A stretch of DNA of 64,000 bases from Candidatus Woesearchaeota archaeon. GTDB lineage: Archaea; Nanobdellota; Nanobdellia; Woesearchaeales; JASKKU01. The position numbers and the translations under genes are program-made. The notes under the pieces are model-generated. The model worked only from the letters and a program-made list of their open reading frames with translations. It was not told the DNA's origin and did not search any database. This document shows, in pieces, positions 3,889 to 57,045 of this stretch; positions within the stretch are counted from its first letter, which is position 1; the number at the start of each line of letters is the position of its first letter. Location: positions 1,025-65,024 of the forward strand of contig JASKKU010000001.1 of NCBI GenBank assembly GCA_030154045.1, read 5' to 3'.

Positions 3889-3889
3889 T

Positions 3890-4684: not shown

Positions 4685-4685
4685 T

Positions 4686-6131: not shown

Positions 6132-6132
6132 T

Positions 6133-40559: not shown

Positions 40560-41357
40560 ATGAAAAGTTTCAAGAAAATTAAGCCTTTTAAGTTAGTCCT
40601 TTCATCATTCTTGATTTTATTGATCGGATTTTTAATCTGGACATCTTTGAATCATAATTTGAATTTTAAAAGGGAAAATATTGTAACCTTTGTACCAGTT
40701 ATTTCTAAATATATTTCAACTGCAAGCACATCTTACAAAAACCTTTCGTGCAAGGATTTCATAAACTTAAGCAATAAAAAGCTCATTAAAGAACATGCGT
40801 ACAATCGAACAGTGAAAGATTCAAAAACAGGTTCACTTTATAAGAACTACATTTTAACTAAAGTTCAAAAAGAGTATTTCAACGCCACCCCTTTTACAGT
40901 TTATACTTCTACACAATATGAGTATTTAAACAACAAAACAATATTTTGTGGAATTAAAAAGAAATATGTAATTAATAGCTCTGATAGAGAATCTTTAAAG
41001 AGATTATATCAGCTTTTCTTAAATAACTTCTCAAAGAAATTTGAACCTATTGAAAAGTTTCAATGTGAAAATTCAGATATTGAATTTATCCTTGGAAAAA
41101 GAGGAGAAATTTATGGGATTTTAGGCGTTTTTACAATAGATCCTGATGTGAAGGTATCTTATAACATAAATGATCCTAACGCGAGAATAGTTACTGCGAG
41201 CGAATGGTTCAAAGGAGAATTTGATGAGTATGTTCTTTTTACTGAATTTAAGGATATCTCGCCCTTGGATAGGTTCAGGGTTACACTAGAATACATCTTA
41301 GACCATGTTTGTTACCCCAAAGAACGGCAAAAGTTTTTTTATTCAAAGATAATTTAA
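40560..41357 (+). CDS. N-terminally anchored membrane/secreted hypothetical protein
   Basis: TM LVLSSFLILLIGFLIW; convergent with, and 4 nt overlapping, the stop of HXS-repeat gene 1. Confidence 0.3.
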   Translation: MKSFKKIKPFKLVLSSFLILLIGFLIWTSLNHNLNFKRENIVTFVPVISKYISTASTSYKNLSCKDFINLSNKKLIKEHAYNRTVKDSKTGSLYKNYILTKVQKEYFNATPFTVYTSTQYEYLNNKTIFCGIKKKYVINSSDRESLKRLYQLFLNNFSKKFEPIEKFQCENSDIEFILGKRGEIYGILGVFTIDPDVKVSYNINDPNARIVTASEWFKGEFDEYVLFTEFKDISPLDRFRVTLEYILDHVCYPKERQKFFYSKII

Positions 41358-41983
41358 TTAACACAACAAATAGGATAACTTGGATTAGAACAATCTTTTG
41401 CACCTACAGAAGTACCACCATAGCCACGACATATTGATACTGATTCAACGCACGCACCATTTTCTGACAAACAATTTGCGTGAGTACTATGGCTAGCATG
41501 ACTAGAATGACTACCATGACTTGAGTGACTGCCGTGACTTGAGTGACTGCCATGACTGCCGTGACTTGAGTGACTGCCATGACTGCCGTGACTTGAGTGA
41601 CTGCCATGACTACCATGAGTTGTATGACTAGCATGAGTAGCATGAGCGATATGACTTGAATGACTGCCGTGAGTTGCATGACTACTGTGACTTGAGTGAG
41701 TGCCGTGAGTGCCATGAGTGGCGTGACTGCTGTGACTACCATGACTACCATGAGTACCATGAGTAGCATGGCTGCTGTGACTCGCATGAGTGCCATGAGT
41801 ACCATGGGTAGCATGATGTGCGTGTTTTGCCGTAGCTGAATTAACTAAAACAGGGGCATTAAAAAAATTAAAGAACGCAGCTGCTGATAGAAAAACACCC
41901 GTACTTACCAAAGAATGCTTATTTGTCAAACCGTCTTCACTTTTAATAAAATACCTTATCCTTTTTTTAAATTTAGGAAACAT
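41354..41983 (-). CDS. His-Xaa-Ser/Thr tripeptide-repeat protein 1: conserved signal/leader-like N-terminus, 40 consecutive H-x-x repeats, C-terminal 6-Cys domain
   Basis: aa 54-173 are strictly periodic HAT/HGT/HGS/HSS... tripeptides; N-terminus MFPKFKKRIRYFIKSEDGLTNKHSL plus a hydrophobic stretch ending VNSATA; C-terminus CLSENGACVESVSICRGYGGTSVGAKDCSNPSYPICCVN. Confidence 0.8.
   Translation of the reverse strand: MFPKFKKRIRYFIKSEDGLTNKHSLVSTGVFLSAAAFFNFFNAPVLVNSATAKHAHHATHGTHGTHASHSSHATHGTHGSHGSHSSHATHGTHGTHSSHSSHATHGSHSSHIAHATHASHTTHGSHGSHSSHGSHGSHSSHGSHGSHSSHGSHSSHGSHSSHASHSTHANCLSENGACVESVSICRGYGGTSVGAKDCSNPSYPICCVN
41465..41824. repeat. tandem 9/27-bp DNA repeats encoding the HxS/T tripeptide array of gene 1
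   Basis: Near-perfect 27-mer gtgacttgagtgactgccatgactgcc repeated 3x around 41527-41610; the antisense ORF 41404..41814 in the track is an artefact of this repeat. Confidence 0.85.
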
Positions 41984-41985
41984 TT

Positions 41986-42420
41986 TTAGGTTATATTGGG
42001 CAGAGATGAACAGTGAGTGGCATGATTGCTGTGACTCGCATGGGTAGCGTGAGTGCCATGGGTAGCATGAGTACTATGACTACCATGACTGCCATGAGTA
42101 GCATGAGTAGCGTGGCTGCTGTGGCTTGAGTGAGTACCGTGAGTAGCATGACTGCTGTGGCTACCGTGAGCAAGATGGCTGGCATGACTAGAATGACTGC
42201 CGTGAGTTTGATGAGAAAAATGACTAGAATGACTAGAATGACTAGAATGACTACTATGACTACTATGACTACCATGCGCCACTGCTAATTTTGAAGTTAT
42301 AATAGAACTTACAGCAAAAGAAGTAAAGAATACTCCAGCACTAATTAAAGAATGCTTATTACTCAACCCTTCTTCACTTTTTATGAAATACATTATCCTC
42401 TTTTTAAACTTTGGAAACAT
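41986..42420 (-). CDS. His-Xaa-Ser/Thr tripeptide-repeat protein 2 (paralog): same conserved N-terminus, 30 repeats, short SLPNIT tail
   Basis: N-terminus MFPKFKKRIMYFIKSEEGLSNKHSL is nearly identical to gene 1 at both protein and DNA level; aa 49-138 are HGS/HSS/HAT... tripeptides; 2-nt spacing to gene 1 and 9 nt to the upstream radical-SAM gene. Confidence 0.8.
   Translation of the reverse strand: MFPKFKKRIMYFIKSEEGLSNKHSLISAGVFFTSFAVSSIITSKLAVAHGSHSSHSSHSSHSSHSSHFSHQTHGSHSSHASHLAHGSHSSHATHGTHSSHSSHATHATHGSHGSHSTHATHGTHATHASHSNHATHCSSLPNIT
42007..42276. repeat. tandem 9-bp-unit DNA repeats encoding the tripeptide array of gene 2
   Basis: catgac/tagtcat-type 9-mers repeated; the antisense ORF 41991..42275 is an artefact. 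Confidence 0.8.
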
Positions 42421-42428
42421 GCAAACAC

Positions 42429-43931
42429 CTATTTTACAGGCTTAAGTTCATCATCACCAAAAATCTTAAGATATTCTCTATGCACGCCTTCACAAATATC
42501 AAAATACTTACATTCTCTACATTTTAAAGTTTTTGCTTTTAAATTATTCTTGCGAGTTGTGTTATACTCCTTATCCAATCCATCAGGATTGGCCATAAAT
42601 CTTTTTTCAGCCATATGTAATTCAACCACATGATTTTCATAACCCTGCATATAACACAAAGGAATTGCTTCAACATTTAACATATAATTATTCTCAATTG
42701 CTAAATCCAGAGCTTGATGAACATATGGAACAACATCTCTAATTCTTGGAATTAAAAGGTCAACATGTTTCAACGCATTACCTTCTGGACTAATAAACAT
42801 AAATTCAGAAAACATTCTCGGTAAATCTTTGTTTAAATTAATAAGGAACCTTACAATATCTGTAAGATGCTTATAATTAAGCTTGTTAATAACAGTAATT
42901 GTAGTATAAAGCACCTCAGGATACTTTTTCGCGTTTTCAAAAGCTTTCATTAATTGCTTGTAGTTGCCTTTAACGCTGGAAAGAGTATCTACAATCTTTT
43001 CATCAACATCGTCAAATGAAAAAGCTATATGATTCGCTCCGGATTCAACAAGTTTATCAAAAAAAGGTTGATAAGACAGCATGCGACCATTTGTAATAAC
43101 CTGCACTTCATAATAACCCATATCTCTAGCTGCCCTCGTTATGAAAAAGATATCCTTTCTTATCGTTGGCTCGCCACCTGTAAAGCTTACTTTCATTGCT
43201 CCAGCCTTCCTTCCGATAAACAAATCATTTAATATATCTTTTGTTGATTTTAATTTCTCTCCAAGATGACCTACGCAACAATACAAACAATTGTTGTTGC
43301 ATAAATAACCAGTTCTTATATCTATCCTAGGCATCTCTTTTCCAGAATTAGGAATCTTCTTCAAATCATAATACTTCTTATAATAAATGTAAAACCCTTT
43401 ACAAAATTTCTTTAGTTCACAACCATTGCATTTTTCTAAGTAAATGTGTTCTTTACCAGGATCATTATCAGAATCAAATTGTCCCTCCCTATTAATGAAC
43501 TTCTGATCAAATTCGTAGTTTCTCGCTTTTAAATCTGAGACATACTTAAAGAATTTCTTATCAATAAAACAGAGAGGAACCCCATCAACTCTAACCTCAA
43601 AACCCTTAGAATCACAAAACTCTAAAGTCTTATTCAAAACGTCTTGAAAAAGTTCAAGAGGAGTAGCTAACGGAACAACCTCATCAATATTTTGTGAGAA
43701 GCGAACAAGATTTGTTATCTGTAAATAAAAGTTATCAGATATTGAAAAAACTCTTCTAGCAACATCAAACAGTTCAGAATAATTCAAACTGTTCACAACA
43801 AAAACAACCCCGGTTTTAATTTTGGTCTTAGCGAGAGCCTCCAAAGCATCAAACTTCTTCTCTAACAATTCAACAGAGGATTTTGATAAAAACGAAAACA
43901 GGAACTTATCCCGGGTAGGAACATGAACCAA
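42429..43931 (-). CDS. two-module radical-SAM protein: N-terminal degenerate half-domain fused to a complete radical-SAM/twitch-like module
   Basis: Module 1 has PLCFID and CNGCELKKFCKG but no CxxxCxxC. Module 2 has CNNNCLYCC, GGEPT, IPLCYMQGY, CRECKYFDICEG and the tail LKIFGDDELKPVK. Confidence 0.8.
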   Translation of the reverse strand: MVHVPTRDKFLFSFLSKSSVELLEKKFDALEALAKTKIKTGVVFVVNSLNYSELFDVARRVFSISDNFYLQITNLVRFSQNIDEVVPLATPLELFQDVLNKTLEFCDSKGFEVRVDGVPLCFIDKKFFKYVSDLKARNYEFDQKFINREGQFDSDNDPGKEHIYLEKCNGCELKKFCKGFYIYYKKYYDLKKIPNSGKEMPRIDIRTGYLCNNNCLYCCVGHLGEKLKSTKDILNDLFIGRKAGAMKVSFTGGEPTIRKDIFFITRAARDMGYYEVQVITNGRMLSYQPFFDKLVESGANHIAFSFDDVDEKIVDTLSSVKGNYKQLMKAFENAKKYPEVLYTTITVINKLNYKHLTDIVRFLINLNKDLPRMFSEFMFISPEGNALKHVDLLIPRIRDVVPYVHQALDLAIENNYMLNVEAIPLCYMQGYENHVVELHMAEKRFMANPDGLDKEYNTTRKNNLKAKTLKCRECKYFDICEGVHREYLKIFGDDELKPVK

Positions 43932-44212: not shown

Positions 44213-45232
44213 CTATTTTAATTCTCTCACCTCTGAATAAACTTCAAGATATTGTTTCCAAAAACCAGGGCATTTGTTCTTAAAAGGACAAACTTTGCAT
44301 TTTTTAACCCTTTCCCTAAACTGATTTAAGGTATAAAGCATATTCTTCTCAGGCTTTGAAAGATAGCATAAGGGAATGTTCTTTGTAAAAACCTTGTTCT
44401 GCTTATCAAACTCAAAACACTTATAAAAGTACTCCTTTAAATCTTCAAACTTTGGTGCAAGTATAGAATATCTTAATTGAGCATCACCGCCAGGCTCAAC
44501 ATAACTTAACTGAATCTCATCCACAAGATTATAAAAAAGTTTTACCATCTCAAAGATTTCTTCAAAATTCTGTTTTAAGATCACAAAGTTTATTTTAAGA
44601 ATTAAATCATCGTATTTTAAATCGTAGAGGTTCTTTAAACCTTGTACGGCTTGTTTAAAACTCCGAGGAGTTCGAGTAATTGCATCATGAGTTCTTTCAT
44701 TAGAACCAAGAATAGTAAAAGCGATCATCAAAGGCAACTTCAATTCAACAAGCCTTTTAGCAAACTCTTTGTAAGCAAACATACGACCGTTTGTTGGGAA
44801 GAAGATAGGAAAGTTGTACTTTTTAAGATGTTCAAGAATTTGAAAAATATCTCTACGCAAAGTAGGCTCTGCACCGTGTAAAACTATTAGTTTTTCTTTT
44901 CCAGTTAACAAAGAATCAAAGCTTGAAATAATCTCTTCAAAACTCGGGTCATCAACTTTGTTCCTAGATGATTCAAAACACATAATGCAATTATTATTGC
45001 ATTTTTTTGTTATAAAGAACTTCTTTATACCTGAAAGATTCAAATTAATTGCGCCAGGTTCACAAACATTAACGCACTTCATACAGCCTAAACAAATGTC
45101 TGCATCAGGAGCAAACACCTTGCCGTTTTCAAATTTAAACAGTTGTTGTGGGCAGACATCAATACATTTTAAACATGAATTACACTTTTTTTCGTCCACT
45201 TCAATCCGTGAAAGAGAATTTATTGCTTTCAT
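44213..45232 (-). CDS. 2x[4Fe-4S] ferredoxin domain fused to a radical-SAM/twitch-like enzyme
   Basis: N-terminal CNSCLKCIDVCP and CLGCMKCVNVCEP; radical-SAM CNNNCIMC, GAEPT, IPLCYLS, C-terminal CKVCPFKNKCPGFW. Confidence 0.8.
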   Translation of the reverse strand: MKAINSLSRIEVDEKKCNSCLKCIDVCPQQLFKFENGKVFAPDADICLGCMKCVNVCEPGAINLNLSGIKKFFITKKCNNNCIMCFESSRNKVDDPSFEEIISSFDSLLTGKEKLIVLHGAEPTLRRDIFQILEHLKKYNFPIFFPTNGRMFAYKEFAKRLVELKLPLMIAFTILGSNERTHDAITRTPRSFKQAVQGLKNLYDLKYDDLILKINFVILKQNFEEIFEMVKLFYNLVDEIQLSYVEPGGDAQLRYSILAPKFEDLKEYFYKCFEFDKQNKVFTKNIPLCYLSKPEKNMLYTLNQFRERVKKCKVCPFKNKCPGFWKQYLEVYSEVRELK

Positions 45233-46098
45233 TTTTTAACATCTTTAACAGGTTTAAAGTCTGAATAATTTTTGAATATCAAAAGATTTTGTTTATAGTA
45301 ACCATTACAATTCTGCTTTAAAACACAGGAATTGCATTCTGACAACGGGAAAACATACCTATCATCATGAATAAAGTCTTCTCCAATAACGTGCTTTCTA
45401 AATTCATCTTCAAAAATACACGGGGGTATATTAAAAACAAAAACACGATCATCAACTAAAGCATCTTCTATATGGGGTTTAATTTGTGAGAGAGAAACAT
45501 AAATCAGATCTTTATTATTAAGACTTCTATTCAAGTAGAGAGGATAATCTAAATAAACATTTTTCGTGGGAAAAAAATTCCTAAGAAACAATACTGTTTC
45601 CTTGAGTTGTTTATAATTTTGCTTAAGAATAACAATCATAAAATAAATATTCAAATCAGCTTCTTTTATAAATTCTAAAGCCTTAACAACTTGATAAAAA
45701 CTACCTTTAACCTTTGTGATTTCATCAAACGTTTCAGGATCTTTTGAATGAAAAGTTGTTCTGATTATATCAATATGTTCTTTGACTTTTTCAAAAAACG
45801 GCTTAACCGAAAGCATTCTGATATTTGACTGCAAACTAATTCGTGTATTCGGATAATTTCTTCGTAAAAATTTCAGGAAATCCAAGAAATAAGGCACTAT
45901 TGTTGGTTCTCCACCGGTTATTTGTATCTCCACAGCAGATTTTGGAATTTGTTTTAAAACCTCTTTTTTTACAAAGGAATATTCAAAAAAAGGTTCATAA
46001 TTTGTTTCAGTATGACAATAAACGCAATGATTATTGCATTTTGTTGTTAAGATAATTGCAAACTTGTTTCCAATAGACTTATGGATCTCAAAAGGCAT
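45229..46098 (-). CDS. radical-SAM/twitch-like enzyme (paralog)
   Basis: CNNHCVYC, GGEPT, IPPCIFED, C-terminal CNSCVLKQNCNGYY; 4-nt overlap with the downstream gene. Confidence 0.8.
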   Translation of the reverse strand: MPFEIHKSIGNKFAIILTTKCNNHCVYCHTETNYEPFFEYSFVKKEVLKQIPKSAVEIQITGGEPTIVPYFLDFLKFLRRNYPNTRISLQSNIRMLSVKPFFEKVKEHIDIIRTTFHSKDPETFDEITKVKGSFYQVVKALEFIKEADLNIYFMIVILKQNYKQLKETVLFLRNFFPTKNVYLDYPLYLNRSLNNKDLIYVSLSQIKPHIEDALVDDRVFVFNIPPCIFEDEFRKHVIGEDFIHDDRYVFPLSECNSCVLKQNCNGYYKQNLLIFKNYSDFKPVKDVKK

Positions 46099-46219: not shown

Positions 46220-46783
46220 GTGAACAAACTTTTATTTCAACTAATCTTGTATTTTATAATTTACTTATGTGGATCTTTTCCATCAGCTTATGTTGTAACA
46301 AAAATTTTTGCAAAAAAAGACATTCTAAAAATTGGTTCTGGTAATGTCGGGGCGCGAAATGTTTACGAGAATGTTAGTAAAAAATTAGGAATTATCACCT
46401 TTGCCTTAGACTTCAGCAAAGCAGTTGTAGCTTTTATTATATACTCAAAATACAATCTGTTTTTCACCTTGTCTCTATTAATGCTGGTCTTGGGACATAA
46501 TTTCTCGATCTATTTGAAATTTAAAGGAGGCAAAGGACTCGCGAGTACACTTACGTTCTTATTACTAAAAAATCCACTTCTCGCTATTTTTTCTATAATA
46601 ATCTATCTCATCACAAACAAAACTATCAAAAATATGGCTCTAAGCGTAATGTTGACAATTGCTCTATTATTAATTTTAACCAACATTTTTATTGAAAGAG
46701 ATATATTTATAAGCCTACTCCTTTGGATGGCTCTAACAATAAAATGGCTCCCGAACAAGAGGAACTTAGCAAACAAGAACTAA
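46220..46783 (+). CDS. plsY: PlsY-family acyl-phosphate:glycerol-3-phosphate acyltransferase
   Basis: YLCGSFPSA, GSGNVGARNV and LGHNFSIYLKFKGGKGLAS match the PlsY signatures YLxGSIxSA, GSGNPGATNV, LGHxxPxFxxFKGGKGVAT. Confidence 0.75.
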   Translation: MNKLLFQLILYFIIYLCGSFPSAYVVTKIFAKKDILKIGSGNVGARNVYENVSKKLGIITFALDFSKAVVAFIIYSKYNLFFTLSLLMLVLGHNFSIYLKFKGGKGLASTLTFLLLKNPLLAIFSIIIYLITNKTIKNMALSVMLTIALLLILTNIFIERDIFISLLLWMALTIKWLPNKRNLANKN

Positions 46784-47925
46784 TTAATAAGATCAAAGCA
46801 ATTATACCTGAATTCAAAGAGTATGTTAACTTAATAAATAGTATTAATGTATTTCCAATAGCTGACAAAGATACAGGCACGAACATTTATCTCACTCTCA
46901 AAAAATTTCTAGAATTAAATCGCTTTGAAGGTTTCGGAAATTCAGGCAATATTCTTGAGATCTTTGGGAACTCTCTCTTAAACAATCTTGGAGAAAAATT
47001 TACAATAAAACAGTTAACATCCGCAATTAAATCAGCTATATCTGAAGTTGAAAAATCTATTTTAAACCTTAAAGAGGGAACAATCTATACTGCTATGAAA
47101 AGACTATACGCTTCTTTAATTCAAAACAAAAACTTAAACGAAATAATCATAGGCTTATATCAACAAGTATTAGAAAGTAAAGAATATATGAAAGATTACA
47201 CTAACCAAGATGTTGTTGATTCTGGTGCTTTAGGATTTCTTATTTTTCTATGGTTGTTTAACAACAAAAAACCAGAGATAAACTTTAAAGATTTACAAAA
47301 ACCAATTGACAAAAAAGATTTCGAAGTTTATTGTATAAACATAACTTGTACTGATTATGAAGAAGAAAAGATAAAGACTCTTGATTCGGTAATTATTCAC
47401 AAGACACATAATGAGTATAAAATTCACTTTCATTCTCCCGATCTAAAATCAGCTCTTGAATTTAATAATCCAAAAATATTAAAAATAACTTTGCCAGAGA
47501 GTAATCAAAAAAAGACAAAAATATGTTATTTTTGTGAAAATGAAGAGGAAAAAGAGTTCTTTAGTAATTTGGGCTTAGAAACCGTAAGTTCAATTGAAGA
47601 AATAATTCTAAAAACAAACCCTTTACAAACCTTATATATAATCCCTGAAAGAAAAAAAGAGATTTTAGACTTGATCAATTTAGATGCAATAATTATTCAA
47701 AAAAGTGAAGAAGTATTAGCCTTATTAGAGGTTATCAGTTTAAAAACAGAATTTGACAAAGATGAGATAAATAACAAATTAAAAAAATATGCTTTAGTTG
47801 AAAATCCAAGTGAAGAACATGAAGTTATTTTCAAAATAAGTCGAAAAGTTAAAGAGGATTCTGTTTATTTCCCTTTCTTACATTGCAAAGAAAAGTTTTT
47901 GGTCAAAAAGAAAGATGTCTCATAG
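46723..47925 (+). CDS. DAK2-domain protein (fatty-acid kinase FakA-like / DhaL-like)
   Basis: INVFPIADKDTGTNIYLTL and FGNSGNILEIFGNS match the DAK2 signatures NVYPVPDGDTGTNM and RGNSGVILSQ; the start may be the second Met (MAPEQ, ~46744). Confidence 0.6.
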   Translation: MDGSNNKMAPEQEELSKQELINKIKAIIPEFKEYVNLINSINVFPIADKDTGTNIYLTLKKFLELNRFEGFGNSGNILEIFGNSLLNNLGEKFTIKQLTSAIKSAISEVEKSILNLKEGTIYTAMKRLYASLIQNKNLNEIIIGLYQQVLESKEYMKDYTNQDVVDSGALGFLIFLWLFNNKKPEINFKDLQKPIDKKDFEVYCINITCTDYEEEKIKTLDSVIIHKTHNEYKIHFHSPDLKSALEFNNPKILKITLPESNQKKTKICYFCENEEEKEFFSNLGLETVSSIEEIILKTNPLQTLYIIPERKKEILDLINLDAIIIQKSEEVLALLEVISLKTEFDKDEINNKLKKYALVENPSEEHEVIFKISRKVKEDSVYFPFLHCKEKFLVKKKDVS

Positions 47926-48988
47926 ATTTAAAAAATAAATAAAGAATAAAAAACAAGAAAGTAAAGATTAAAAAAGATTTTACATATTTAAGAATATAAG
48001 ACACCAGAGAAACATCTTCAAAAGCCTTAGAAAAAATATAAGCCTTAGAAAAATTTCCACCAGGATACTGAGAATATATCCTTTCGGCATATATATAGAA
48101 AAGTTGCCTTTTGGAAAACAGATCACTAAAAAAAATTTTAGAGATCTTTATTAAAGGCAAGATTCTGAAATCTTTAGAATAAATATAAAGCCAGCGAATA
48201 TTTAATTTAGCTTTTTCATAACAGTTATCTTTAAGTTGTTTGGGTACTTTAATCCCTAAAAGATTTTCTAAACGATAAATCTTAAAAGAGCAATCATAAA
48301 AATCATCATGAACCAAAAAGAATTCTAAATGTGAAGAAATATTTTTAAGAAGTGAATCTTTAAAGCTACAGTTAATCAAACTACAATAATAGGCAAAGTG
48401 TACATTTGAAACGAAATCAAAATTATGGGGTGTAGAAATATTCTTTTCAAAAACTTCAAAAAGACCGTATGTTTTATTTAAATTAAAAGAATCAATAAAA
48501 TTTGCATTAAAATTAAAGTCAGAAAAATTGTGTTTGAGATCCTGAAAAATAAAAGTATATGTTAAAGCTGTGTCATCTAAATCAGCGCCATATAATGAAT
48601 AAAGAGGAGTATAAGTGAAAGCAATTGGAATATTATCTTGCTTTAGATTGATTCTTAATTTTAAATAATTAAAAAGCGCTTCTTTAAAAGACTGAGGCAT
48701 AATGTTTTTAAATTCTCCGATAGAGCAGATTAAAGGAAAGAAAATATTCTCATCGAGATATTTATATGAATCCGTAAACTCTGATCTAGAAAGATAAGCA
48801 TTCTCAAGTTTTGAAATTGATAATGTTGATTGCTTTGAAGCATACGTTCTCAAAAAGAATCCATCAATAACCTCAGATTTAAACTCTTGATAAAAATAAA
48901 AAAACTGAACTAAGAAAAAAAGAGTGAGAACTAAAAAGAAAACGAACAAAAAACAAGAGCTCCTTTCTAATAACTTTAGTTTATTCAT
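47903..48988 (-). CDS. N-terminally anchored membrane protein of unknown function
   Basis: TM FLFVFFLVLTLFFLVQFFYF then an Asn/Phe/Tyr-rich domain. Confidence 0.3.
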   Translation of the reverse strand: MNKLKLLERSSCFLFVFFLVLTLFFLVQFFYFYQEFKSEVIDGFFLRTYASKQSTLSISKLENAYLSRSEFTDSYKYLDENIFFPLICSIGEFKNIMPQSFKEALFNYLKLRINLKQDNIPIAFTYTPLYSLYGADLDDTALTYTFIFQDLKHNFSDFNFNANFIDSFNLNKTYGLFEVFEKNISTPHNFDFVSNVHFAYYCSLINCSFKDSLLKNISSHLEFFLVHDDFYDCSFKIYRLENLLGIKVPKQLKDNCYEKAKLNIRWLYIYSKDFRILPLIKISKIFFSDLFSKRQLFYIYAERIYSQYPGGNFSKAYIFSKAFEDVSLVSYILKYVKSFLIFTFLFFILYLFFKSMRHLSF

Positions 48989-49844
48989 CTTTATGAACTA
49001 CAATCCCAAAAACATCGGGTCCAAAATGAGATGTAGGCACAAGATTTGTCTTAAAATGATATAAGAAATTTGACTTTGAACCAAAATACGCAAAAATCTG
49101 CTGGTTCAAATTGTTTGCAAGACTCTCACTTTCCACAGAACCCGACAGAAGACCATATGTAAAAGATGAATCTAAGACAAAATTTTTAATATGCTTCTTT
49201 AATTTAAGATAAACGTTTCTTAAACCTACTGCTTTATCAACAACTACAGGTACACCATTTTCTTGAGAACCTATCGGATAAACATTTAACAGTTTTCCAA
49301 ATAATCCTTGAACAGGTTTTAGCCTTCCACCTCTAACCAAGTATGAAAGATCATATACAACATAGTAAAATTTCAAATTTTTCTTTACTTTTAACAAAAA
49401 ATGGTTTATTTGATCAAAAGACCAAGAATTAAAATCTTGTTTTGATAAAAGCAAAGCTTGAATTCCTAACTCTGCAGATGTTGAACCAGAATCAAATAAT
49501 AATGATTTTGAAGATAGAAGATTATCAGATTCAATTAAAGTTTTACAAAGATTATAAATTCCGCTTATTTTCTGACTACTCGTTATAAATATAAACCTAT
49601 CAAATCCTTTTGAAATCACATCAAAAACAGTTTTTTTAACTTCATTTAATGTGGGTACCGAAGTCTTTGGAAAATCCTTTGAACTTTTTACTAAGGAGAT
49701 ATATTCTTCTCTAGTAATATTTTGATTAAGAACAAAGTCTCTGCCATCGATCATCGCATGAAACTTTATTAAGAAAATATCTCGTTTATTAGCATACTGC
49801 TCATCAATATCACTTGCGGAATCTACAAAAATTGCTGTTTTCAT
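48981..49844 (-). CDS. DegV-family fatty-acid-binding protein (FakB-like)
   Basis: MKTAIFVDSASD, PKTSVPTLNEV, SSQKISGIYN match DegV/FakB signatures (MKIAVMTDSTS, PTTSQPAIGE, SSGISGSY). Confidence 0.65.
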   Translation of the reverse strand: MKTAIFVDSASDIDEQYANKRDIFLIKFHAMIDGRDFVLNQNITREEYISLVKSSKDFPKTSVPTLNEVKKTVFDVISKGFDRFIFITSSQKISGIYNLCKTLIESDNLLSSKSLLFDSGSTSAELGIQALLLSKQDFNSWSFDQINHFLLKVKKNLKFYYVVYDLSYLVRGGRLKPVQGLFGKLLNVYPIGSQENGVPVVVDKAVGLRNVYLKLKKHIKNFVLDSSFTYGLLSGSVESESLANNLNQQIFAYFGSKSNFLYHFKTNLVPTSHFGPDVFGIVVHKDE

Positions 49845-49881
49845 AATAAAAACAAAGTAATATTTAAAAAGTATTTAATCT

Positions 49882-51105
49882 TTGTGGTTTCCAATGAAAG
49901 TAAAGACTCTTACATTGTTAATAATCTCAGTATATAGTGTAGCACTACTGAGTCAAACTTTGGAACTGTTACCATTTACAATCTTTTTTCTTTCACTCAT
50001 TGCAATAAAAAGAAAAGCCAACCTCGATAAGCTTATAGTGTCTCTAACATTACCTCTAATATATTTCTTCCCATTCAATCTCTGGGTTGATATGAAATTA
50101 AGTTGGTATCTAATTCCTGTACTATTAAGCGCATTAATTTTAGTCCTATTCTTTAAAATTTCTGAGAAAATAATTTATATTTTTAAAAATTATAAGAAGG
50201 ATCCTCTGTTTCTATCAATAATCCTTTCCTTGACTTGGGTTGGCCTTTTATATTTAACTTATAAGATTTTAGGAACCGAACCAACTTGGATGTTTTTCTC
50301 ATATCGATGGTTTAAATCAAATTTAGCGCAGCTAAATATATACTCTTTTGAATCAATCGTCTTTTTCACAATATCCTATTTCTCAATTTCGTTAACCGAA
50401 AAAACAAATTCTGAAAAAAAGAGATGGGTACACATAAGTCTCTCTACTATCTTAATAATCATACTTTTACTCAGTTTTCTCAAACCAATAAAAATAGAGC
50501 ATCCGCAAAAAGCATTGTTGATAAACTTAAATCTAGATTTTTCTTATACACATAGAGTTGAAAACCAAAAAGAGATCTTGTATAAATATATCGAAGCAAT
50601 CAAAAATTCTACTTCAAAAGTTGATTTCATAATCTTACCAGAGTATGTAATCGTCACAGATTGGCGAAAAGAACCAAAAATCATTGAGTTATTCAAAAAC
50701 ACCTCTTCTGAATTAAACACACCCATTCTCGTAGGTTCAAAAGAAGATATAAACACAACGCATTTTTATAATGTGGCTGTGATCTTTGACAAGAATAAAA
50801 GTTATTCTGTAAGAGATGTATTCCCTATGAGTTTGTCTAAAAACACTGTTAAAGGTAACAGGCTTCCGACAATTGATTTAAAAAATAACTCTTATGCCAT
50901 TTTACTTTGTTTTTCAACAACACAGTCTAGATTTTGGAAAGAAATTAAAGAAAACCCTAAAATAGACGGAGTGTTGATTTTAGCAAATGAACAAGCATTA
51001 CATTGGTTCCTAAAAAAAGACGTATATTATCTAATCAGATATTTTGAAATATATTCTAAAAAGCCAATTTATAAAGCAGTAAACAACGGGATCACTTATC
51101 CATAA
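49882..51105 (+). CDS. polytopic membrane protein with a C-terminal CN-hydrolase-like domain (apolipoprotein N-acyltransferase Lnt-like?)
   Basis: About 6 TM helices, then IILPEY (Glu), KNKSYSVRDVFP (Lys), AILLCFS (Cys) in Lnt-like order. Confidence 0.35.
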   Translation: MWFPMKVKTLTLLIISVYSVALLSQTLELLPFTIFFLSLIAIKRKANLDKLIVSLTLPLIYFFPFNLWVDMKLSWYLIPVLLSALILVLFFKISEKIIYIFKNYKKDPLFLSIILSLTWVGLLYLTYKILGTEPTWMFFSYRWFKSNLAQLNIYSFESIVFFTISYFSISLTEKTNSEKKRWVHISLSTILIIILLLSFLKPIKIEHPQKALLINLNLDFSYTHRVENQKEILYKYIEAIKNSTSKVDFIILPEYVIVTDWRKEPKIIELFKNTSSELNTPILVGSKEDINTTHFYNVAVIFDKNKSYSVRDVFPMSLSKNTVKGNRLPTIDLKNNSYAILLCFSTTQSRFWKEIKENPKIDGVLILANEQALHWFLKKDVYYLIRYFEIYSKKPIYKAVNNGITYP

Positions 51106-51610
51106 AAAGTTCGTTAAAAATTCTTAAAAACTGTTCAAAATCAATTTGTGATTCCTTTTTAAAGTTACCTTTTTTGGCGTCATCAAAGAATTCTTTGTTA
51201 GAGATTATTTTTCTTAAATCTTGAGAAACTTTGAAACAAGTATTCCCATAAACCAAAATGTTAACACATTTCAAATCCTGAAGAATTTTTGTGTATGGGA
51301 ACGGATTACAAGTTAAACCCACAAACAAAGAGAAATTTTCTTTTTGTTCATTAATTGTTTTTTCTAGATGCTCATAAGAAGTTATCTGAAAAAATTTTAT
51401 TCTTTGTTCTTGCAAAAACCTTGTGATCTTTCCATAAACACAAGTCTTTCTTGTACACGTAGAGTCACAAAAATTCTTTTTCCTATACTTGCAATCCAAT
51501 GGCTTTAAACAGTAAGGCAGTAAGAAAACAATTTTCGGTCTCGACGTTTTTTTAACTTCTTGTAAAGAGCAATCCTTCAATTGAAAACCATCAAAAGGCA
51601 CCCATATCAT
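51092..51610 (-). CDS. small Cys-rich protein (8 Cys), unknown function
   Basis: Cys-rich segment LPYCLKPLDCKYRKKNFCDSTCTRKTCVYG. Confidence 0.3.
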   Translation of the reverse strand: MIWVPFDGFQLKDCSLQEVKKTSRPKIVFLLPYCLKPLDCKYRKKNFCDSTCTRKTCVYGKITRFLQEQRIKFFQITSYEHLEKTINEQKENFSLFVGLTCNPFPYTKILQDLKCVNILVYGNTCFKVSQDLRKIISNKEFFDDAKKGNFKKESQIDFEQFLRIFNELFMDK

Positions 51611-51613
51611 GTT

Positions 51614-52525
51614 TTATCTCCTATTTTGAATAACAGGCTCATGCTCTCCAAATCCATAAAACTGAACATAACTCTTTAACAAATGAGGACATTCATTATA
51701 ATAAATACATCTCTTGCATTCCGGTCCATTATCCATAAAAGCCCCACCAACACAACCCGACTTAACAACAAATTGTCTAAATCTTGGAGAAAAAAGAGCT
51801 TTTGGTAACAAATGAATTTGTATTTTTTCTGAAGAAAATCCTGCATTAATCAAGTTGGCTATTGCTTTTTCTATTTCAGGAGCAATCTCTAAATGAGAAA
51901 CTAACATTCTGTCTTTATTCTGCAAAGCCATCCCAATAACATCCATTCCTATAAAAGTAAACGAAGAAATTCTATACAAATTCTCTTTACGAATCATATC
52001 GCCATAAAACTTTAAAGTTTTATAGTTCATTTTGCTAACTACCGTTCTAATACCTACATCAAACCCCCTAGAGAGCAGATTTTTTAACCCAATCAAACTT
52101 TTATCCCAAGAGCCTTTAACTTGTGTAATTTGGTCATGGACAATTGAAAAAGGACTATAAAAACCAAATTCAATATGAAAATCAAATCCTCTTTCTTTCA
52201 AAAATAGAAACTTATCACAGAACGCTTGATAATAAAACATCATTCCATTTGAATTGATATGTATTCTTAAGTCTCTCTTCTTTTTTAAAACATGGAAAAG
52301 AATATCAAACAAAAAAGGACTGATTGTCGGCTCACCACCAATAAAAGAAACTATACGAATATCATCGCCCCAATTTTCATCAATAAACTTAAGAACCTCA
52401 TCTTTTGTAAGATTATAAGCCCTAAAATTATCATCGTTAGGGCAGTTTAAACACATCTGATTACATTTAGTTGTGGCATTAACCACTAATTCTCCAGGAT
52501 TCCTAAATCCATAAATTGAACCCAT
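51614..52525 (-). CDS. radical-SAM/twitch-like enzyme (paralog)
   Basis: CNQMCLNC, GGEPT, C-terminal CKRCIYYNECPH. Confidence 0.8.
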   Translation of the reverse strand: MGSIYGFRNPGELVVNATTKCNQMCLNCPNDDNFRAYNLTKDEVLKFIDENWGDDIRIVSFIGGEPTISPFLFDILFHVLKKKRDLRIHINSNGMMFYYQAFCDKFLFLKERGFDFHIEFGFYSPFSIVHDQITQVKGSWDKSLIGLKNLLSRGFDVGIRTVVSKMNYKTLKFYGDMIRKENLYRISSFTFIGMDVIGMALQNKDRMLVSHLEIAPEIEKAIANLINAGFSSEKIQIHLLPKALFSPRFRQFVVKSGCVGGAFMDNGPECKRCIYYNECPHLLKSYVQFYGFGEHEPVIQNRR

Positions 52526-52567: not shown

Positions 52568-54448
52568 TTACAACGGCTTAAGCTCATCAGTTCCATAAAG
52601 GTCAAAATACTCTTTTAAAACACCTTGACAAACATTGTTATACTTGCACATTTTACATTCTTCAGATTTATAACCAAACAAATCTCGTTCATTATTCCTC
52701 AATCTATCATCCATCCATTTGTCAAATCCACCTACAGATTTAATCTCATTAAACTCTACACTAAAAGTTCTAAATTCTTCAGGAACTTGACAAAGAGGAA
52801 AGTTCTCTAAGCCAATGGAAATGTTTTTAGTTTTGAGTTTATTCAGACCTTTAACAAGATAAGGCAATACTTTAGAATATTTTGGCGTGAGTTCTTGATT
52901 TAATTTTGTAGAGAATCTATTCGGTTTCACCATACTTACACTCAAACCAAGATGTATCCCTTTTTCTAAAGCTTCTGGATAAAATTCCTGCAACATAAAA
53001 TCAACAAAATCTGGAAAATATATGTAATTTCCTTTGTACAAAACATGAACAAGCATAACATCTATACTTAAAGCAATAGCATTATGTATGCCTTTAACAG
53101 TTTTATCAAAGTTTCCTTTGACTCTTGAAACTTTCTCAGAAATTTCGGTAGTATGTCCGTGCAACGAAATCATAAAACTATCTAACCCCGCTCGTTTCAA
53201 TCTTTCAACAAAAGCATAAGAACTTAAAAGAACACCATTTGTGTTTACAATAACTTGATTTGCATATCTCTTAGCAAGTTTAATAAGATAATCTAAATCC
53301 TTGTTTAAAGTTGGTTCACCACCCATAAAAACAATTTTATCAAACTCGTTCAGGATAATCTTCTTAACAATATCAATTAAAGGCAAAGACGAATCCAACG
53401 ATGGTTTTTCAAAAAAGGGTTTTTCTGCTGCAGGGTCCTGAGTGTCAATTCTAAGGAATTTATCATAAGTACAAAAAATACACCTTTGATTACACGAACC
53501 TGACGCGTTTATGATATTCAATCCTGACTTAAGTTGTTTATCTTTAAGAAAGAAAGGTACATAGTCCTGACTTTTAGATTTGATAGAATTAAACTCAAAA
53601 GTCCCGACAAAGTGAGTATAACTCCTCCAAGGTTTAGCGCATGAATCTTGTAGAGCACAATCCTTGCATGAATCCAAAAGGTCCAACCTTTTCTCAACAA
53701 CCGAAACTCCGCTTGCATATCTCCAATATTTCGATGGCAAAACACATTTAGGCATATGTAATAGAATAACCTCCAAATTCTTTTGTTTACAATATTCTAT
53801 CGCTTCAATAACGTATGGAATGAATTCCGCATAAGTAATCATAAGTTCTCTCCGATTCTTAGCAGCATTTCCAATAATATCTATAGGAAAAATAACAAAC
53901 CTATTGATTCCTAAACTTTCACCAATCTTGACTATATCCAAGATCTTTTCAAAATTTAATCTATGAATTACTAACCTTTGCTCAATAAACCAACCCAAAA
54001 TCTTTTTGATATTTTTAATACCTTCAATTGTCTGTTTAAAACTACCTTTAACCCCTGTAATCTTGTCGTGCAAGTCTTCACGTCCATGAATTTCTGTAAT
54101 TAAAAGAACTCTTTTTGGATCAATATCTTTAAAGGATTTGCAAAAATCAGAATAATAAAAAAGACGGGCATTGGTAACAAGCTTGATTTCTGCTTTTGAG
54201 TTATCCTGAATAAATCGCATAACTTCGTGTAATTGTTTTGGATAAAGTGTAGGTTCACCGCCCGTAATCACAAAAAAAGAAGCGTTTGGGTCTTTAGCCA
54301 ACGTACTTTTTATTTTGTTTATCTGTTCACGTAATGGCTGAGACTTCTGTTTTGAAGGCATCACATTGGTACACATAATGCAATTGTTATTACATACTTG
54401 ACCAAAATAAACTTCATAATCCAACATATTCATTTTGAATTCCACCAA
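52568..54448 (-). CDS. tandem double radical-SAM protein (two complete modules)
   Basis: Module 1 CNNNCIMC...GGEPT...CKDCALQDSCAKPW; module 2 CNQRCIFC...GGEPT...FPLCQV...CKMCKYNNVCQG and tail YGTDELKPL. Confidence 0.8.
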   Translation of the reverse strand: MVEFKMNMLDYEVYFGQVCNNNCIMCTNVMPSKQKSQPLREQINKIKSTLAKDPNASFFVITGGEPTLYPKQLHEVMRFIQDNSKAEIKLVTNARLFYYSDFCKSFKDIDPKRVLLITEIHGREDLHDKITGVKGSFKQTIEGIKNIKKILGWFIEQRLVIHRLNFEKILDIVKIGESLGINRFVIFPIDIIGNAAKNRRELMITYAEFIPYVIEAIEYCKQKNLEVILLHMPKCVLPSKYWRYASGVSVVEKRLDLLDSCKDCALQDSCAKPWRSYTHFVGTFEFNSIKSKSQDYVPFFLKDKQLKSGLNIINASGSCNQRCIFCTYDKFLRIDTQDPAAEKPFFEKPSLDSSLPLIDIVKKIILNEFDKIVFMGGEPTLNKDLDYLIKLAKRYANQVIVNTNGVLLSSYAFVERLKRAGLDSFMISLHGHTTEISEKVSRVKGNFDKTVKGIHNAIALSIDVMLVHVLYKGNYIYFPDFVDFMLQEFYPEALEKGIHLGLSVSMVKPNRFSTKLNQELTPKYSKVLPYLVKGLNKLKTKNISIGLENFPLCQVPEEFRTFSVEFNEIKSVGGFDKWMDDRLRNNERDLFGYKSEECKMCKYNNVCQGVLKEYFDLYGTDELKPL

Positions 54449-55368
54449 AAAACTTTATTCCTTTTTTTAGGTTCTTCAAATATTGGATAGAGTTCTTCTA
54501 ACCCAAACATCTCAGCATACTCTTTCCAAACACCAGGACAAACATTATTAAGAACACACAACTCGCAATCTTTTGATTTTTTCTTCAGTTCGGAAAACTG
54601 TTTTTTGAGAAGGTTATATTTGCCTGTTTGAGAATTGATATATTCTTGCTGATGATATCTTTCAGTATTTAACCGAATATACTCTGAAGAATATTCCTTA
54701 AATTCAAGCATATAACATAAAGGCACACCTTCAACCTCATAGATAATGTCCTCTTGTTTATCCAGAAAAGTTAAAACTTTATACAAATGGTATTGAACTT
54801 TATAAAGTCGTGGAACCAATTCAGGATGTTGTTGTGTTCTACCGTTTGGCCTGATAAATCCAAAATAAAATTTCACCTTACCAACATTTGATAGAATAAA
54901 TTTTACGAAATTAAGCAAATCTTTATAATTCAACTCGTTGATAACATGAGAAATTGCAACAAAAAGTCTTGCATCAACTAATCGTTTAAGATTTTTGATA
55001 ATAGTATCAAAATTATCAACGCCTGAGAGATATTTATGAACTTCTCGTTTGTGAGAATGCAATGAAGCCATAATCTGTGTAACATTCGTTGAAATCAAAG
55101 TTTCAAAGATCTCATCAGTTATGTTTGAAACATTTGTTTGTAGTTCAATATTCTTTCCTAAAGAATGAGCGAATTTAACTAATTCAATAAAATCTTTTCT
55201 TATCGTTGGTTCGCCACCTGTAAATACAACTGTGTGTGCATCTGTTTCTCTGATGATTTTTTTAACATGTTCAGTTGAGAGCGTTGCCTCGTTAGTGCCA
55301 TAAACAGTACAAAATTTGCACAGGTGGTTGCATTCGTGTCCTAAGCGAATATTCAACACTGAAGTCAT
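54430..55368 (-). CDS. radical-SAM/twitch-like enzyme (paralog)
   Basis: CNHLCKFC, GGEPT, VPLCYML, CELCVLNNVCPGVW, tail FGLEELYP. Confidence 0.8.
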   Translation of the reverse strand: MTSVLNIRLGHECNHLCKFCTVYGTNEATLSTEHVKKIIRETDAHTVVFTGGEPTIRKDFIELVKFAHSLGKNIELQTNVSNITDEIFETLISTNVTQIMASLHSHKREVHKYLSGVDNFDTIIKNLKRLVDARLFVAISHVINELNYKDLLNFVKFILSNVGKVKFYFGFIRPNGRTQQHPELVPRLYKVQYHLYKVLTFLDKQEDIIYEVEGVPLCYMLEFKEYSSEYIRLNTERYHQQEYINSQTGKYNLLKKQFSELKKKSKDCELCVLNNVCPGVWKEYAEMFGLEELYPIFEEPKKRNKVFWWNSK

Positions 55369-55392: not shown

Positions 55393-57045
55393 TTAAATGT
55401 TTTTTTGAAAATTTGGCGATTTGGTTAATTTAATCGCACCGTAAGGACAAACTTCGTGACAAGTATAGCAATGAATACACTTATCCTCAATAACTTTTAA
55501 TCGCTTGCCAATTTCGTCAAAAACAATAGCGCCAACAGGACATGAATTAAAACAAGTTTTACAAAGAGTACATTTGTGTTGGTCGATTGAAACTTTATAT
55601 ATATAGGCCTTCCCAAACTCTGCTTCATTTTTAATAGGATTCAGAAGATTAAATAGAGAATGTTTTTTAAAATTGGGATGAATAATCTCAACTACATCTT
55701 TGAAATCGCCAACAATTTGTATATTATCAGTATAACCTTCGCCCAGATACTTCTCTGTTGCAAACTTTACAGTAGGTAAATGCTCAGGCTCATAACCCAT
55801 AACCTTACTAACAACAGTATCAACAGCAACCCCGTCTTTTCCAAAGAATAACAATCCAACATTTACTGGGTCGCCATAAGAAGGTCCTTCGTCTCCTTCC
55901 ATTCCAATAATGCCATCAACAACATGCAAAGCAAACTTATCTTTTAGTCTTGAATAAACATCTACAACACCTTTAGCAAAATTAAATCTATCAACAAAAG
56001 AATGAATATATTTTCTTTCGTCTGGATGAATTAAACCAAAACAGGATTTTACACAACAGGTGAAAAAAGTAAGTCCGTGTGTTTTCATCTTAGGAACATT
56101 AATGATTAAATCAACCTTGTCCAAAAAAGAAAGAAAATCTGTTTTCTCAACTAAATAATAGTTTGGAATCCTCTTAACAGTATAACCATCTTTGCTCATA
56201 TCAACAATCTTAACATTTTCACTCAAAGCAACATCCTTCATTCCTGTAACTGTCATAAGTCTATCAAACGCCTGATAATTTGTACCTGCTGCCAAATCTG
56301 AGATGTAAATTTCATTTGTAACTTGCTTTAAAACTCTAACAATTGCTTTGATAACAACAGGGTGTGTTGTTGCAACTTTTTCCGGTGGCAAAGGCTCAGC
56401 AAGGTTTGGTTTTATCAATACCTTTGAACCTTTTGGAACTAATTTTTCAACACCGCCAAAAGAATCAAACCCTTTCTTCACTGCTTTAAGAATTGATTCA
56501 AAATCATTATAATCCTTAAATTTTCCAAAGACAGCAACTTTTTCTTTTAGACCAAATCCTCTCTTAGCCTTGATCAAAATCTCGTCTTTCGGTTTAAAAA
56601 TAGGATACACCTGATTCTCAAATCTTAAATCTGCACCTGGACAGAAAGATCTTACTGCACAGCTATCGCATGCAAGGAACTTTTTCTTAATAATTCTTTC
56701 AGGATTTTTTAGTTTGATTAACCCTTCTTCAAACAACAACTTAAGTTTAAGATCATAACTCAACCACGGAAAATCTTGAAGATAACATAAAGGTACATCC
56801 TTTACTTGAAGAACAACATCATTTTTCTTAGCCCACCTAATTAACCTGTTCAATTTAAGCTCGTTTGTATAAATTTCTCCAGAACATGAAACCAAAACAA
56901 ACTTCTTTTGCAAAGTTTTAATCTTAGAAGTGATTTCCTCAAAAGTTTCCTTACATATGTCAACCTCAATAAAATCTTGATTAGGGAGCGCTTCAACACT
57001 GCTATTTGTTTGTAAATTCCCTGATTCAAAGACAAACAGTTTCAT
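55393..57045 (-). CDS. fusion protein: degenerate radical-SAM C-terminal half-domain + DUF362 + 2x[4Fe-4S] ferredoxin
   Basis: N-terminus VPLCYLQDF...CDSCAVRSFCPG; middle HGLTFFTCCVKSCFGLIHPDERKY (DUF362-like); C-terminus CTLCKTCFNSCP and CIHCYTCHEVCP. Confidence 0.6.
   Translation of the reverse strand: MKLFVFESGNLQTNSSVEALPNQDFIEVDICKETFEEITSKIKTLQKKFVLVSCSGEIYTNELKLNRLIRWAKKNDVVLQVKDVPLCYLQDFPWLSYDLKLKLLFEEGLIKLKNPERIIKKKFLACDSCAVRSFCPGADLRFENQVYPIFKPKDEILIKAKRGFGLKEKVAVFGKFKDYNDFESILKAVKKGFDSFGGVEKLVPKGSKVLIKPNLAEPLPPEKVATTHPVVIKAIVRVLKQVTNEIYISDLAAGTNYQAFDRLMTVTGMKDVALSENVKIVDMSKDGYTVKRIPNYYLVEKTDFLSFLDKVDLIINVPKMKTHGLTFFTCCVKSCFGLIHPDERKYIHSFVDRFNFAKGVVDVYSRLKDKFALHVVDGIIGMEGDEGPSYGDPVNVGLLFFGKDGVAVDTVVSKVMGYEPEHLPTVKFATEKYLGEGYTDNIQIVGDFKDVVEIIHPNFKKHSLFNLLNPIKNEAEFGKAYIYKVSIDQHKCTLCKTCFNSCPVGAIVFDEIGKRLKVIEDKCIHCYTCHEVCPYGAIKLTKSPNFQKNI

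Follow-up and report, generated by a model that had tools for sequence, protein, structure and literature searches.

A Fak-PlsY gene module with an Lnt-family member inside a His-Xaa-Ser cluster of a Woesearchaeota genome

The window analysed in this study is a stretch of 64,000 nucleotides (nt) from a Candidatus Woesearchaeota archaeon (GenBank assembly GCA_030154045.1, contig JASKKU010000001.1, positions 1,025 to 65,024), and the positions given below are counted from its first letter. Six open reading frames (ORFs) occupy positions 46220-51610 of the window. They encode a PlsY-family acyltransferase (PlsY'), a FakA-like kinase (FakA'), a membrane-anchored protein of 361 amino acids (aa), a DegV/FakB fatty-acid binding protein (DegV), a divergent Lnt-family protein (Lnt') and a DUF116 protein (Table 1). 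The genes of PlsY', FakA' and Lnt' are on the plus strand, and those of DegV and the 361-aa protein are on the minus strand, the strand of the radical S-adenosylmethionine (radical SAM) array that surrounds them. The 3' end of the PlsY' gene overlaps the FakA' gene by 40 nt, which suggests a single transcription unit. The DegV gene shares 8 nt with the 361-aa gene, and DegV and Lnt' are divergent with a spacer of 37-49 bp; taken together, the overlaps and the divergent spacer divide the module into three small transcription units, two on the plus strand and one on the minus strand. In GenBank the region carries the locus tags PWR32_44-50. The three core genes were named by the depositor, and the others that were checked (Lnt', the 361-aa gene, DUF116 and the radical SAM genes) are 'hypothetical'.

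Table 1. Coordinates of the module genes and of the surrounding His-Xaa-Ser (Hxs) cluster in the window
Feature	Position	Strand	Evidence and annotation
PlsY-family membrane acyltransferase (PlsY'), 187 aa	46220-46783	+	PF02660 122 bits, E 2.6e-35; GenBank MDK2849378 'acyl phosphate:glycerol-3-phosphate acyltransferase'
FakA-like kinase (FakA'), 393 aa (400 aa from TTG 46723)	46744-47925	+	Dak2 27.1 bits; GenBank MDK2849379 'fatty acid kinase'
Membrane-anchored protein of 361 aa (GenBank: 348 aa)	47903-48988	-	one transmembrane helix at each end; all-helical prediction between
DegV/FakB fatty-acid binding protein, 287 aa	48981-49844	-	PF02645 160 bits (cutoff 27); GenBank MDK2849381 'fatty acid kinase fatty acid binding subunit'
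Lnt-family protein (Lnt'), divergent and short at the C-terminus, 403 aa (407 aa from TTG 49882)	49894-51105	+	phmmer and family profile; 'hypothetical protein' in GenBank
DUF116 protein	51092-51610	-	PF01976 32.8 bits; first flanking-cluster gene on the right side of the module; 'hypothetical' in GenBank
Two tandem HxsA-like His-Xaa-Ser repeat proteins	41354-42420	-	NF038313 HxsA4 73 bits (cutoff 55), HxsA3; N-terminal hydrophobic anchors
Three HxsC-like radical SAM proteins, left flank	42429-43931, 44213-45232, 45229-46098	-	best NCBIfam match HxsC/HxsC4, below cutoffs; mutual paralogues
HxsC-like radical SAM proteins, right flank	51614-52525, 52568-54448 (two domains), 54430-55368, 58173-59138	-	HxsC top match, below cutoff
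DUF362/ferredoxin	55393-57045	-	
Gene without assignment	57076-58125	-	
HxsB	59139-60671	-	TIGR03978 415 bits, cutoff 370
HxsD	60951-61496	-	TIGR03976 48 bits against a cutoff of 50; PF27806

The host is archaeal and of the DPANN type (Diapherotrites, Parvarchaeota, Aenigmarchaeota, Nanoarchaeota as well as Nanohaloarchaeota). An archaeal signal recognition particle (SRP) RNA was found in the window at 137.7 bits, and the window encodes a split RpoB, RpoA', RpoA'', ribosomal proteins S12 and S15/S13e, and HerA-Mre11. TBP and MCM lie immediately downstream of the window on the same contig. A preliminary description of the region, made from the letters alone, had suggested a probable DPANN host, and the SRP RNA and the GenBank name of the organism agree with it. 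The same gene order was recovered in six independently assembled sequencing runs. An assembly or binning artefact or a chimera is ruled out by these six concordant assemblies and by the archaeal markers on the same contig.

The signature motifs from which PlsY, a DAK2 kinase domain and DegV had been recognised in the preliminary description were all found in place, and the family scores are far beyond chance. PlsY' was aligned with the PlsY of Aquifex and with ten bacterial PlsYs taken from fetched loci, and it matched the Aquifex structure 5xj5 at 6e-17. It is like Aquifex PlsY in its seven-transmembrane family fold, as judged by sequence, in the motifs GSGN and FKGGKG, and in the retention of Ser35, His92 and Gly102-Gly103-Lys104-Gly105, of which His92 and the GGKG residues form the 'phosphate hole' for acyl-phosphate.

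The N-terminal 175 residues of FakA' align with FakA_N of Staphylococcus aureus, and the Mg/ATP ligands and the GNSG loop are intact. Its top sequence matches in the PDB were FakA N-domains (1.5e-6). Across 21 FakA' homologues, D41, D43, G65-N-S-G68, C197, H228 and H230 were invariant, and many of these homologues carry PF21645. C197, H228 and H230 correspond to Cys240, His282 and His284 in the middle domain of S. aureus FakA. These three residues have been called catalytic, and FakA_N and FakA_L suffice for kinase activity (PMC9136124). The AlphaFold2 (AF2) model of FakA' was confident for the Dak2 and middle domains, with a predicted local distance difference test (pLDDT) of 70-87 in the middle-domain region. 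Its best fold match was full-length FakA of Streptococcus suis (7e-11), followed by FakA_N structures, with template modelling scores of 0.62-0.74 normalised to the target; the DhaL structure 3pnl_B matched at 3e-4. FakA' has a Dak2/ATP domain and a Cys-His-His middle domain, and it is predicted to be a fatty acid kinase.

DegV scored 173.6 bits against TIGR00762, above the cutoff of 99.7, and aligned end to end with FakB/DegV structures of the PDB at 1e-22. Thr61, Ser93, Arg170 and His264 (FakB2 numbering) coordinate the fatty-acid carboxylate in FakB (PMC10848957). The PKTS, ISG, GGR and SHFG motifs of DegV align to these four ligands, all of which are kept. The FakA-like, FakB/DegV and PlsY identities proposed for the core genes were borne out by these ligands, by the Cys-His-His triad and by the lack of a DhaK gene.

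The fourth member, Lnt', was more difficult to place. Searched alone, it failed in Pfam (CN_hydrolase, E 0.087) and in the PDB sequence search. With phmmer it reached proteins with CN_hydrolase and LNT_N domains at E 2.5e-12 and weaker, and 19 proteins in all came out of the exhaustive search. When these relatives and Lnt' were aligned, CN_hydrolase was present in 17/20 and LNT_N in 8/20, and a profile of the 20 matched the Lnt of Escherichia coli and of Pseudomonas aeruginosa across both domains, over the full length for E. coli, at 1.4e-51. Residues 1-207 of Lnt' contain six to seven hydrophobic segments, and a putative CN-hydrolase-like domain follows. Lnt' probably resembles these two Lnt structures in a polytopic N-domain and a periplasmic or extracellular nitrilase-fold domain. 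Of the catalytic residues it keeps Glu and Cys: Lnt Glu267 has its aligned counterpart in Glu254 (LPEY), and Lnt Cys387 in Cys343 (LLCFS). On the profile evidence, Lnt' belongs to the Lnt/CN-hydrolase lineage, yet it is not a textbook Lnt. The possible Lnt-like member of the preliminary description is thus upheld as an Lnt-family protein of the module, by phmmer, by the family profile and by its conserved place in the gene order.

The gene order PlsY'-FakA'-DegV-Lnt' was found in the same orientation in two related contigs (L005 and L017), and DegV-Lnt' in a third (L016), with amino acid identities of 43-61% (tblastn). These three contigs are only 2-3 kb long, and flanks beyond the module are not visible in them. 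A scan of GTDB species for close relatives returned only distant Dak2 proteins (22-34% identity), and a scan of Joint Genome Institute (JGI) metagenomes returned one contig of 1.3 kb. The nearest relatives of DegV are those of its own lineage (60% and 49% identity); outside it, the nearest named relatives are from Bacilli, at ~31%. The GC content of the module genes is 0.26-0.31, and their GC content, GC content at third codon positions (GC3) and codon-usage distance are within the spread of the other genes of the window. The module has no flanking repeats, and the only repeats seen were chance AT-rich ones. A recent horizontal insertion or a mobile element has no support from composition, codon distance or repeats, and the secondary insertion considered in the preliminary description was not favoured for the same reasons. 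Any transfer from bacteria is ancient, and the DegV relatives are too distant to name a donor.

We consider it probable that the module is a woesearchaeal form of the bacterial Fak-PlsY route, one that has been conserved and maintained vertically and is extended by an Lnt-family acyltransferase. From family membership, the conservation and loss of catalytic residues, the gene order and the archaeal host, we infer the substrates, the direction in which the route runs and the part played by Lnt' as follows. DegV/FakB would extract free fatty acid from a membrane, of the host or of the environment. FakA' would phosphorylate the DegV-bound carboxylate to acyl-phosphate by means of its Dak2 domain and its Cys-His-His middle domain, and its lineage-specific C-terminal domain presumably docks DegV. 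PlsY' would move the acyl group from acyl-phosphate to an acceptor of the glycerol-phosphate type. Lnt' would form an acyl-thioester on Cys343 from the resulting ester lipid and pass the chain to a lysolipid or to the N-terminus of a surface protein.

Several results weigh against this reading, and a number of them concern PlsY'. PlsY' scored 101 bits against the equivalog TIGR00023, below the cutoff of 137.2. Unlike Aquifex PlsY (5XJ5), it has Arg in place of Thr41, Glu in place of Arg45 (Asp in the L017 orthologue) and Val in place of Ser142; there is no His within the C-terminal 40 residues that could be the equivalent of His177, and the C-terminal motif H-R-x-N-I-x-R-L is missing or truncated. 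In Aquifex PlsY, Arg45 is part of the phosphate clamp for sn-glycerol-3-phosphate (G3P), and Ser142 and His177 are the ligands of the G3P 2-OH; activity was reduced by 70% in S142A and by more than 90% in R45K and in all His177 mutants (PMC5700162). Of the clamp residues Ser35, Arg45, Lys104 and Asn180, PlsY' keeps Ser35 and Lys104 and has lost Arg45; Asn180 is kept in the window PlsY' only, and the tail alignment is uncertain here. The changes T41R and R45E/D are common to two lineages. The bacterial PlsY partners of Fak genes retain Arg45 and His177. The donor site of PlsY' looks intact and its acceptor site looks remodelled, and with such a pocket the acceptor may differ from G3P. Position 41 is one helical turn away from the lost Arg45, and the Arg found there could be a phosphate ligand that has moved. 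A 2026 finding is that bacterial PlsY accepts both sn-glycerol-1-phosphate (G1P) and G3P (PMC13400652). The acceptor of PlsY' may be G3P, G1P or another compound, and the acyl-glycerol-3-phosphate named as the product in the preliminary description is not assured, given the loss of Arg45, Ser142 and His177.

The other adverse points concern the kinase, its partner, Lnt' and the gene content. FakA' scored 67.4 bits against YloV TIGR03599 (cutoff 396) and 36.7 bits against FakA NF038248 (cutoff 975). No match to PF13684 (FakA_C) was obtained in residues 245-393 of FakA', even at E 10. Model confidence is moderate to low at residues 250-309, and pLDDT is <50 from residue 310 to the end. The C-terminal ~150 aa of FakA' have no family match, yet they share ~50% identity among three orthologues, and this identity points to a real lineage-specific domain in the place of FakA_C. 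In DegV, Val stands at the column aligned with the FakA_C-docking Arg202/205 wedge, and the loss of this docking Arg fits the absence of FakA_C in FakA'. Lnt' has Asp at the column of Lys335, with Arg311 one residue earlier, and so lacks an alignable catalytic Lys; Lys is also absent from this column in most of the divergent Lnt' subfamily. Lnt' ends at ...NNGITYP, directly past an NTGIT-like motif, and is without the last strands and transmembrane helix 8 (TM8); its closest homologues, P0022 and P0070, likewise end at or just past an NTGIT-like motif. Besides these losses, Lnt' differs from the Lnt of E. coli and P. aeruginosa in being ~100 aa shorter, in its sub-threshold Pfam score, in the lack of an Lgt/Lsp context and in its archaeal host. 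Finally, PlsC, CdsA and glycerol-phosphate dehydrogenase were not seen within the ~73 kb read. None of the lipid genes sought (PlsC, CdsA, GGGPS) was present in the 9 kb added beyond the right end, and PlsX and PlsC were not found near the module.

Part of this evidence can be read in another way. An ether-linked host membrane offers no acyl esters, and the module might supply acyl donors for the acylation of proteins or peptides, not for the bulk membrane. Fak and PlsY' would then make 1-acyl-glycerol-phosphate as a donor for Lnt', and the targets would be surface lipoproteins, possibly including the neighbouring membrane-anchored His-Xaa-Ser proteins. We regard this as rather unlikely. In its favour, the module has Lnt' as its conserved fourth member and no PlsC was present in the DNA read, and the Lnt of E. 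coli uses the acyl chain at sn-1 of phospholipids, which is also where PlsY acylates. In DPANN archaea, proteins with a lipobox are predicted to be common, and no archaeal N-acyltransferase is known (PMC12462473), which we also count for protein acylation. The module lies within an Hxs cluster in which the HxsA proteins are anchored at the N-terminus, and the phage-like contig L014 also puts a DegV-FakA_NL pair 9 kb from an HxsC-like radical SAM gene. Against this, Lnt' is truncated and without an alignable catalytic Lys, the Lnt-like genes of other putative archaea are not beside Fak genes, and a lipobox Cys is missing near the anchor of the HxsA proteins. The linkage to Hxs genes, moreover, is seen in one or two independent lineages only, and the short related contigs show no flanks. 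A bolder form of the same idea, an 'ester-acyl shuttle' in which PlsY' would acylate a non-canonical acceptor (e.g. G1P) and the Lys-less Lnt' would lipidate archaeal surface proteins or Hxs products, appears to us unlikely. If true, it would be fatty-acid lipidation of an ether-lipid organism from scavenged fatty acids and the first archaeal N-acyltransferase system.

The losses in PlsY' and Lnt' could also mean that the module goes back to an old transfer from bacteria and is now a remnant, in decay or put to another use, with both acyltransferases dead for the textbook reactions and, for example, Fak alone kept for fatty-acid sensing or detoxification. Fak has regulatory roles in staphylococci, and the lost Arg45, Ser142 and His177, the lost Lys and C-terminus of Lnt' and the sub-threshold equivalog scores are all in keeping with a remnant. 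Nevertheless, all reading frames are intact, and the four-gene order and many residues, including those of the FakA' C-terminal domain, are conserved at ~50% identity across lineages, which indicates purifying selection. T41R and R45E/D, present in two lineages, argue for a remodelled site rather than a degraded one. We therefore hold a remnant to be quite improbable. Far less credible still is that FakA' serves a dihydroxyacetone kinase as its DhaL-type subunit, has an EDD-fold protein as partner and has nothing to do with fatty acids; the preliminary description had named this outcome as one that would overturn its reading. The Dak2 domain is common to DhaL, and 3pnl_B is a weak fold match to FakA'. 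In E-value, however, DhaL falls several orders of magnitude behind the FakA structures, and there is no DhaK gene. FakA' has the FakA-specific middle domain with its Cys-His-His triad, the DegV partner carries the fatty-acid carboxylate ligands, and the gene of PlsY, a consumer of acyl-phosphate, overlaps the kinase gene.

The woesearchaeal version of the Fak-PlsY route can be compared with the bacterial FakA/FakB-PlsY systems of Staphylococcus, Streptococcus and Bacillus. The two are alike in the Dak2 domain with its two Asp and GNSG, in the Cys-His-His middle domain, in a DegV partner with Thr, Ser, His and Arg ligands, and in an adjacent PlsY-family gene, as in many bacteria. They differ in that FakA_C (PF13684) is replaced in the window by an unrelated-looking tail of ~150 aa and DegV is without the docking Arg. 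In addition, the window module is archaeal, has no PlsX or PlsC nearby and has an Lnt-like gene attached. Outside its own lineage, the nearest relatives of FakA' are FakA_NL-only proteins of 260 aa that adjoin a DegV gene, or Dak2-M-DegV fusions of ~580 aa. These two forms mark the loss or replacement of FakA_C as a recurrent natural architecture. Like the window kinase, the short FakA_NL + DegV pairs and the Dak2-M-DegV fusions followed by PlsY (Wenzhouxiangella, Prolixibacteraceae, Patescibacteria and the Promethearchaeota contig L043) have a FakA without FakA_C, and they are examples of Fak-DegV-PlsY as an operon; unlike them, the window kinase has an extra C-terminal domain, and its DegV is separate and on the opposite strand.

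In bacteria, FakA(N+M)-DegV, often fused and followed by PlsY, is common, and was found in Wenzhouxiangella, Prolixibacteraceae, Spirochaetota and Patescibacteria. In the loci of Wenzhouxiangella (L044, L058, L061-L076) and Prolixibacteraceae (L027/L039) and in L018, Dak2-M-DegV is followed directly by a canonical PlsY. The Dak2-M-DegV genes of these loci apparently encode single fused proteins of ~570-600 aa, like P0009-P0021. This compact fused Fak-PlsY operon type was not found in the Firmicute literature examined. In a metagenome-assembled genome (MAG) of Patescibacteria (L020, 4894-7615), a FakA-like gene lies between two PlsY paralogues, the second of which has Thr in place of Ser35 and Met in place of Thr41.

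To our knowledge, archaeal PlsY homologues have long been reported without a known source of acyl-phosphate, and PlsX has not been reported alongside them. Work by Villanueva in 2017 is also said to have described PlsY and PlsC homologues in uncultured archaea. Such homologues have been published for DPANN, Asgard and Marine Group II (MG-II) archaea and were interpreted as inter-domain transfer (Coleman 2019, PMC6431249). The reports resemble the present case in a bacterial-type acyltransferase gene in an uncultured archaeon, and differ from it in that no acyl-phosphate source was described there, whereas here Fak genes are linked and the acceptor pocket differs. An operon of FakA_NL (357 aa), DegV (295 aa) and a PlsY-like protein (265 aa) was found in the Promethearchaeota MAG DZ3S.51 (L043, 9219-11973), and it would give the published Asgard PlsY homologues a source of acyl-phosphate. 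The published homologues and this operon make the preliminary statement that archaea lack the route too strong.

PlsY in DPANN and Asgard archaea (PMC6431249) and the GenBank names of the three core genes were thus already known. What is new is the physical Fak-PlsY-Lnt' linkage in archaea, the replacement of FakA_C, the remodelled PlsY pocket and the truncated Lnt relative without Lys. We found no publication on Fak/DegV in DPANN archaea or Woesearchaeota in the open-access literature. In a DPANN archaeon, PlsY is here in physical linkage with the genes predicted to make acyl-phosphate, and the same linkage occurs in the Asgard MAG. The question whether some archaea build ester-linked fatty-acyl lipids thereby becomes an in vitro experiment with three proteins. 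The altered pocket of PlsY' is a concrete handle on the question of G1P versus G3P, and for archaeal lipoproteins, whose N-acylation step is missing, Lnt' is a candidate. With regard to the biology of DPANN archaea, a means of using fatty acids of the host or the environment is suggested by the module.

Lnt-like relatives of Lnt' in apparently archaeal contigs do not adjoin Fak genes. One of them, an Lnt-like CN_hydrolase membrane protein of 465 aa, lies between SRP54/FtsY-type genes in the apparently archaeal MAG GCA_053533135.1 (L078, 8001-9398). The spread of Lnt-family proteins among small archaea may be underestimated.

The radical SAM genes that flank the module are, by their family assignments, a real Hxs system. 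The cluster spans positions 41354-61496, which is unusually large for archaea, and all of its genes that were checked in GenBank are 'hypothetical'. HxsC was the top match for seven genes, all below the cutoff, and one of the HxsA-like proteins has a Cys-rich C-terminus. Long ORFs that overlap the HxsA genes in other frames or on the other strand (41404-42288) are artefacts of the CAT/AGC-rich His-Xaa-Ser repeat DNA, which also lifts the GC content here to 0.41-0.43. The preliminary description had placed the module inside a radical SAM cluster, which is correct. It had also stated that the module splits this array in opposite orientation. The module does sit between HxsC paralogues, and PlsY', FakA' and Lnt' run against the array; DegV and the 361-aa gene share its strand, so that the orientation is not uniformly opposite.

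In the phage-like contig L014, the HxsC-like radical SAM protein that lies ~9 kb from DegV-FakA_NL has matches to every one of the window paralogues, at 1e-13 to 3e-25. L014 (98-11187) and a second phage-like contig, L002 (7225-14880), carry a DegV of 256 aa and a FakA_NL-only kinase of 261-262 aa beside YcaO and several radical SAM proteins. PolA, tail-fibre-like repeat proteins and many orphan ORFs are also present in both, and in their DegV neither the His nor the Arg ligand is kept. The pair appears to be a Fak-like one of viral or mobile origin, accompanied by enzymes of the type that makes ribosomally synthesized and post-translationally modified peptides (RiPPs). With one or two independent cases, the proximity of Fak-type and Hxs genes is suggestive of a possible functional link. 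The lipid anchoring of the His-rich protein that the preliminary description had raised is speculative.

The 361-aa protein had no match in Pfam, NCBIfam or the PDB sequence search and no detectable homologue outside the species. Its single-sequence AF2 model had a pLDDT of 45 and was unusable. In L005 and L017, FakA' and DegV do not have this gene between them, and its absence in these relatives marks it as a lineage-specific insertion. Residues 136-141 of the protein read DLDDTA, which we take to resemble DxDDTA, a signature found in class II terpene cyclases and in alpha/alpha-toroid proteins related to them; the resemblance is unexplained and may be chance.

Two other loci of the window were recorded. 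On the minus strand at 2806-8241, two T2SSF-like genes are accompanied by those of a T2SSE ATPase and of a protein of 702 aa whose N-terminus is AprA_N-like. The locus is probably one for a surface filament, either a type IV pilus or an archaellum-like one. An Rfam tRNA match of 120 nt at 31490-31609 (minus strand), beside tRNA-Lys and tRNA-Asp, was uncalled by ARAGORN in bacterial mode and is probably an intron-containing archaeal tRNA.

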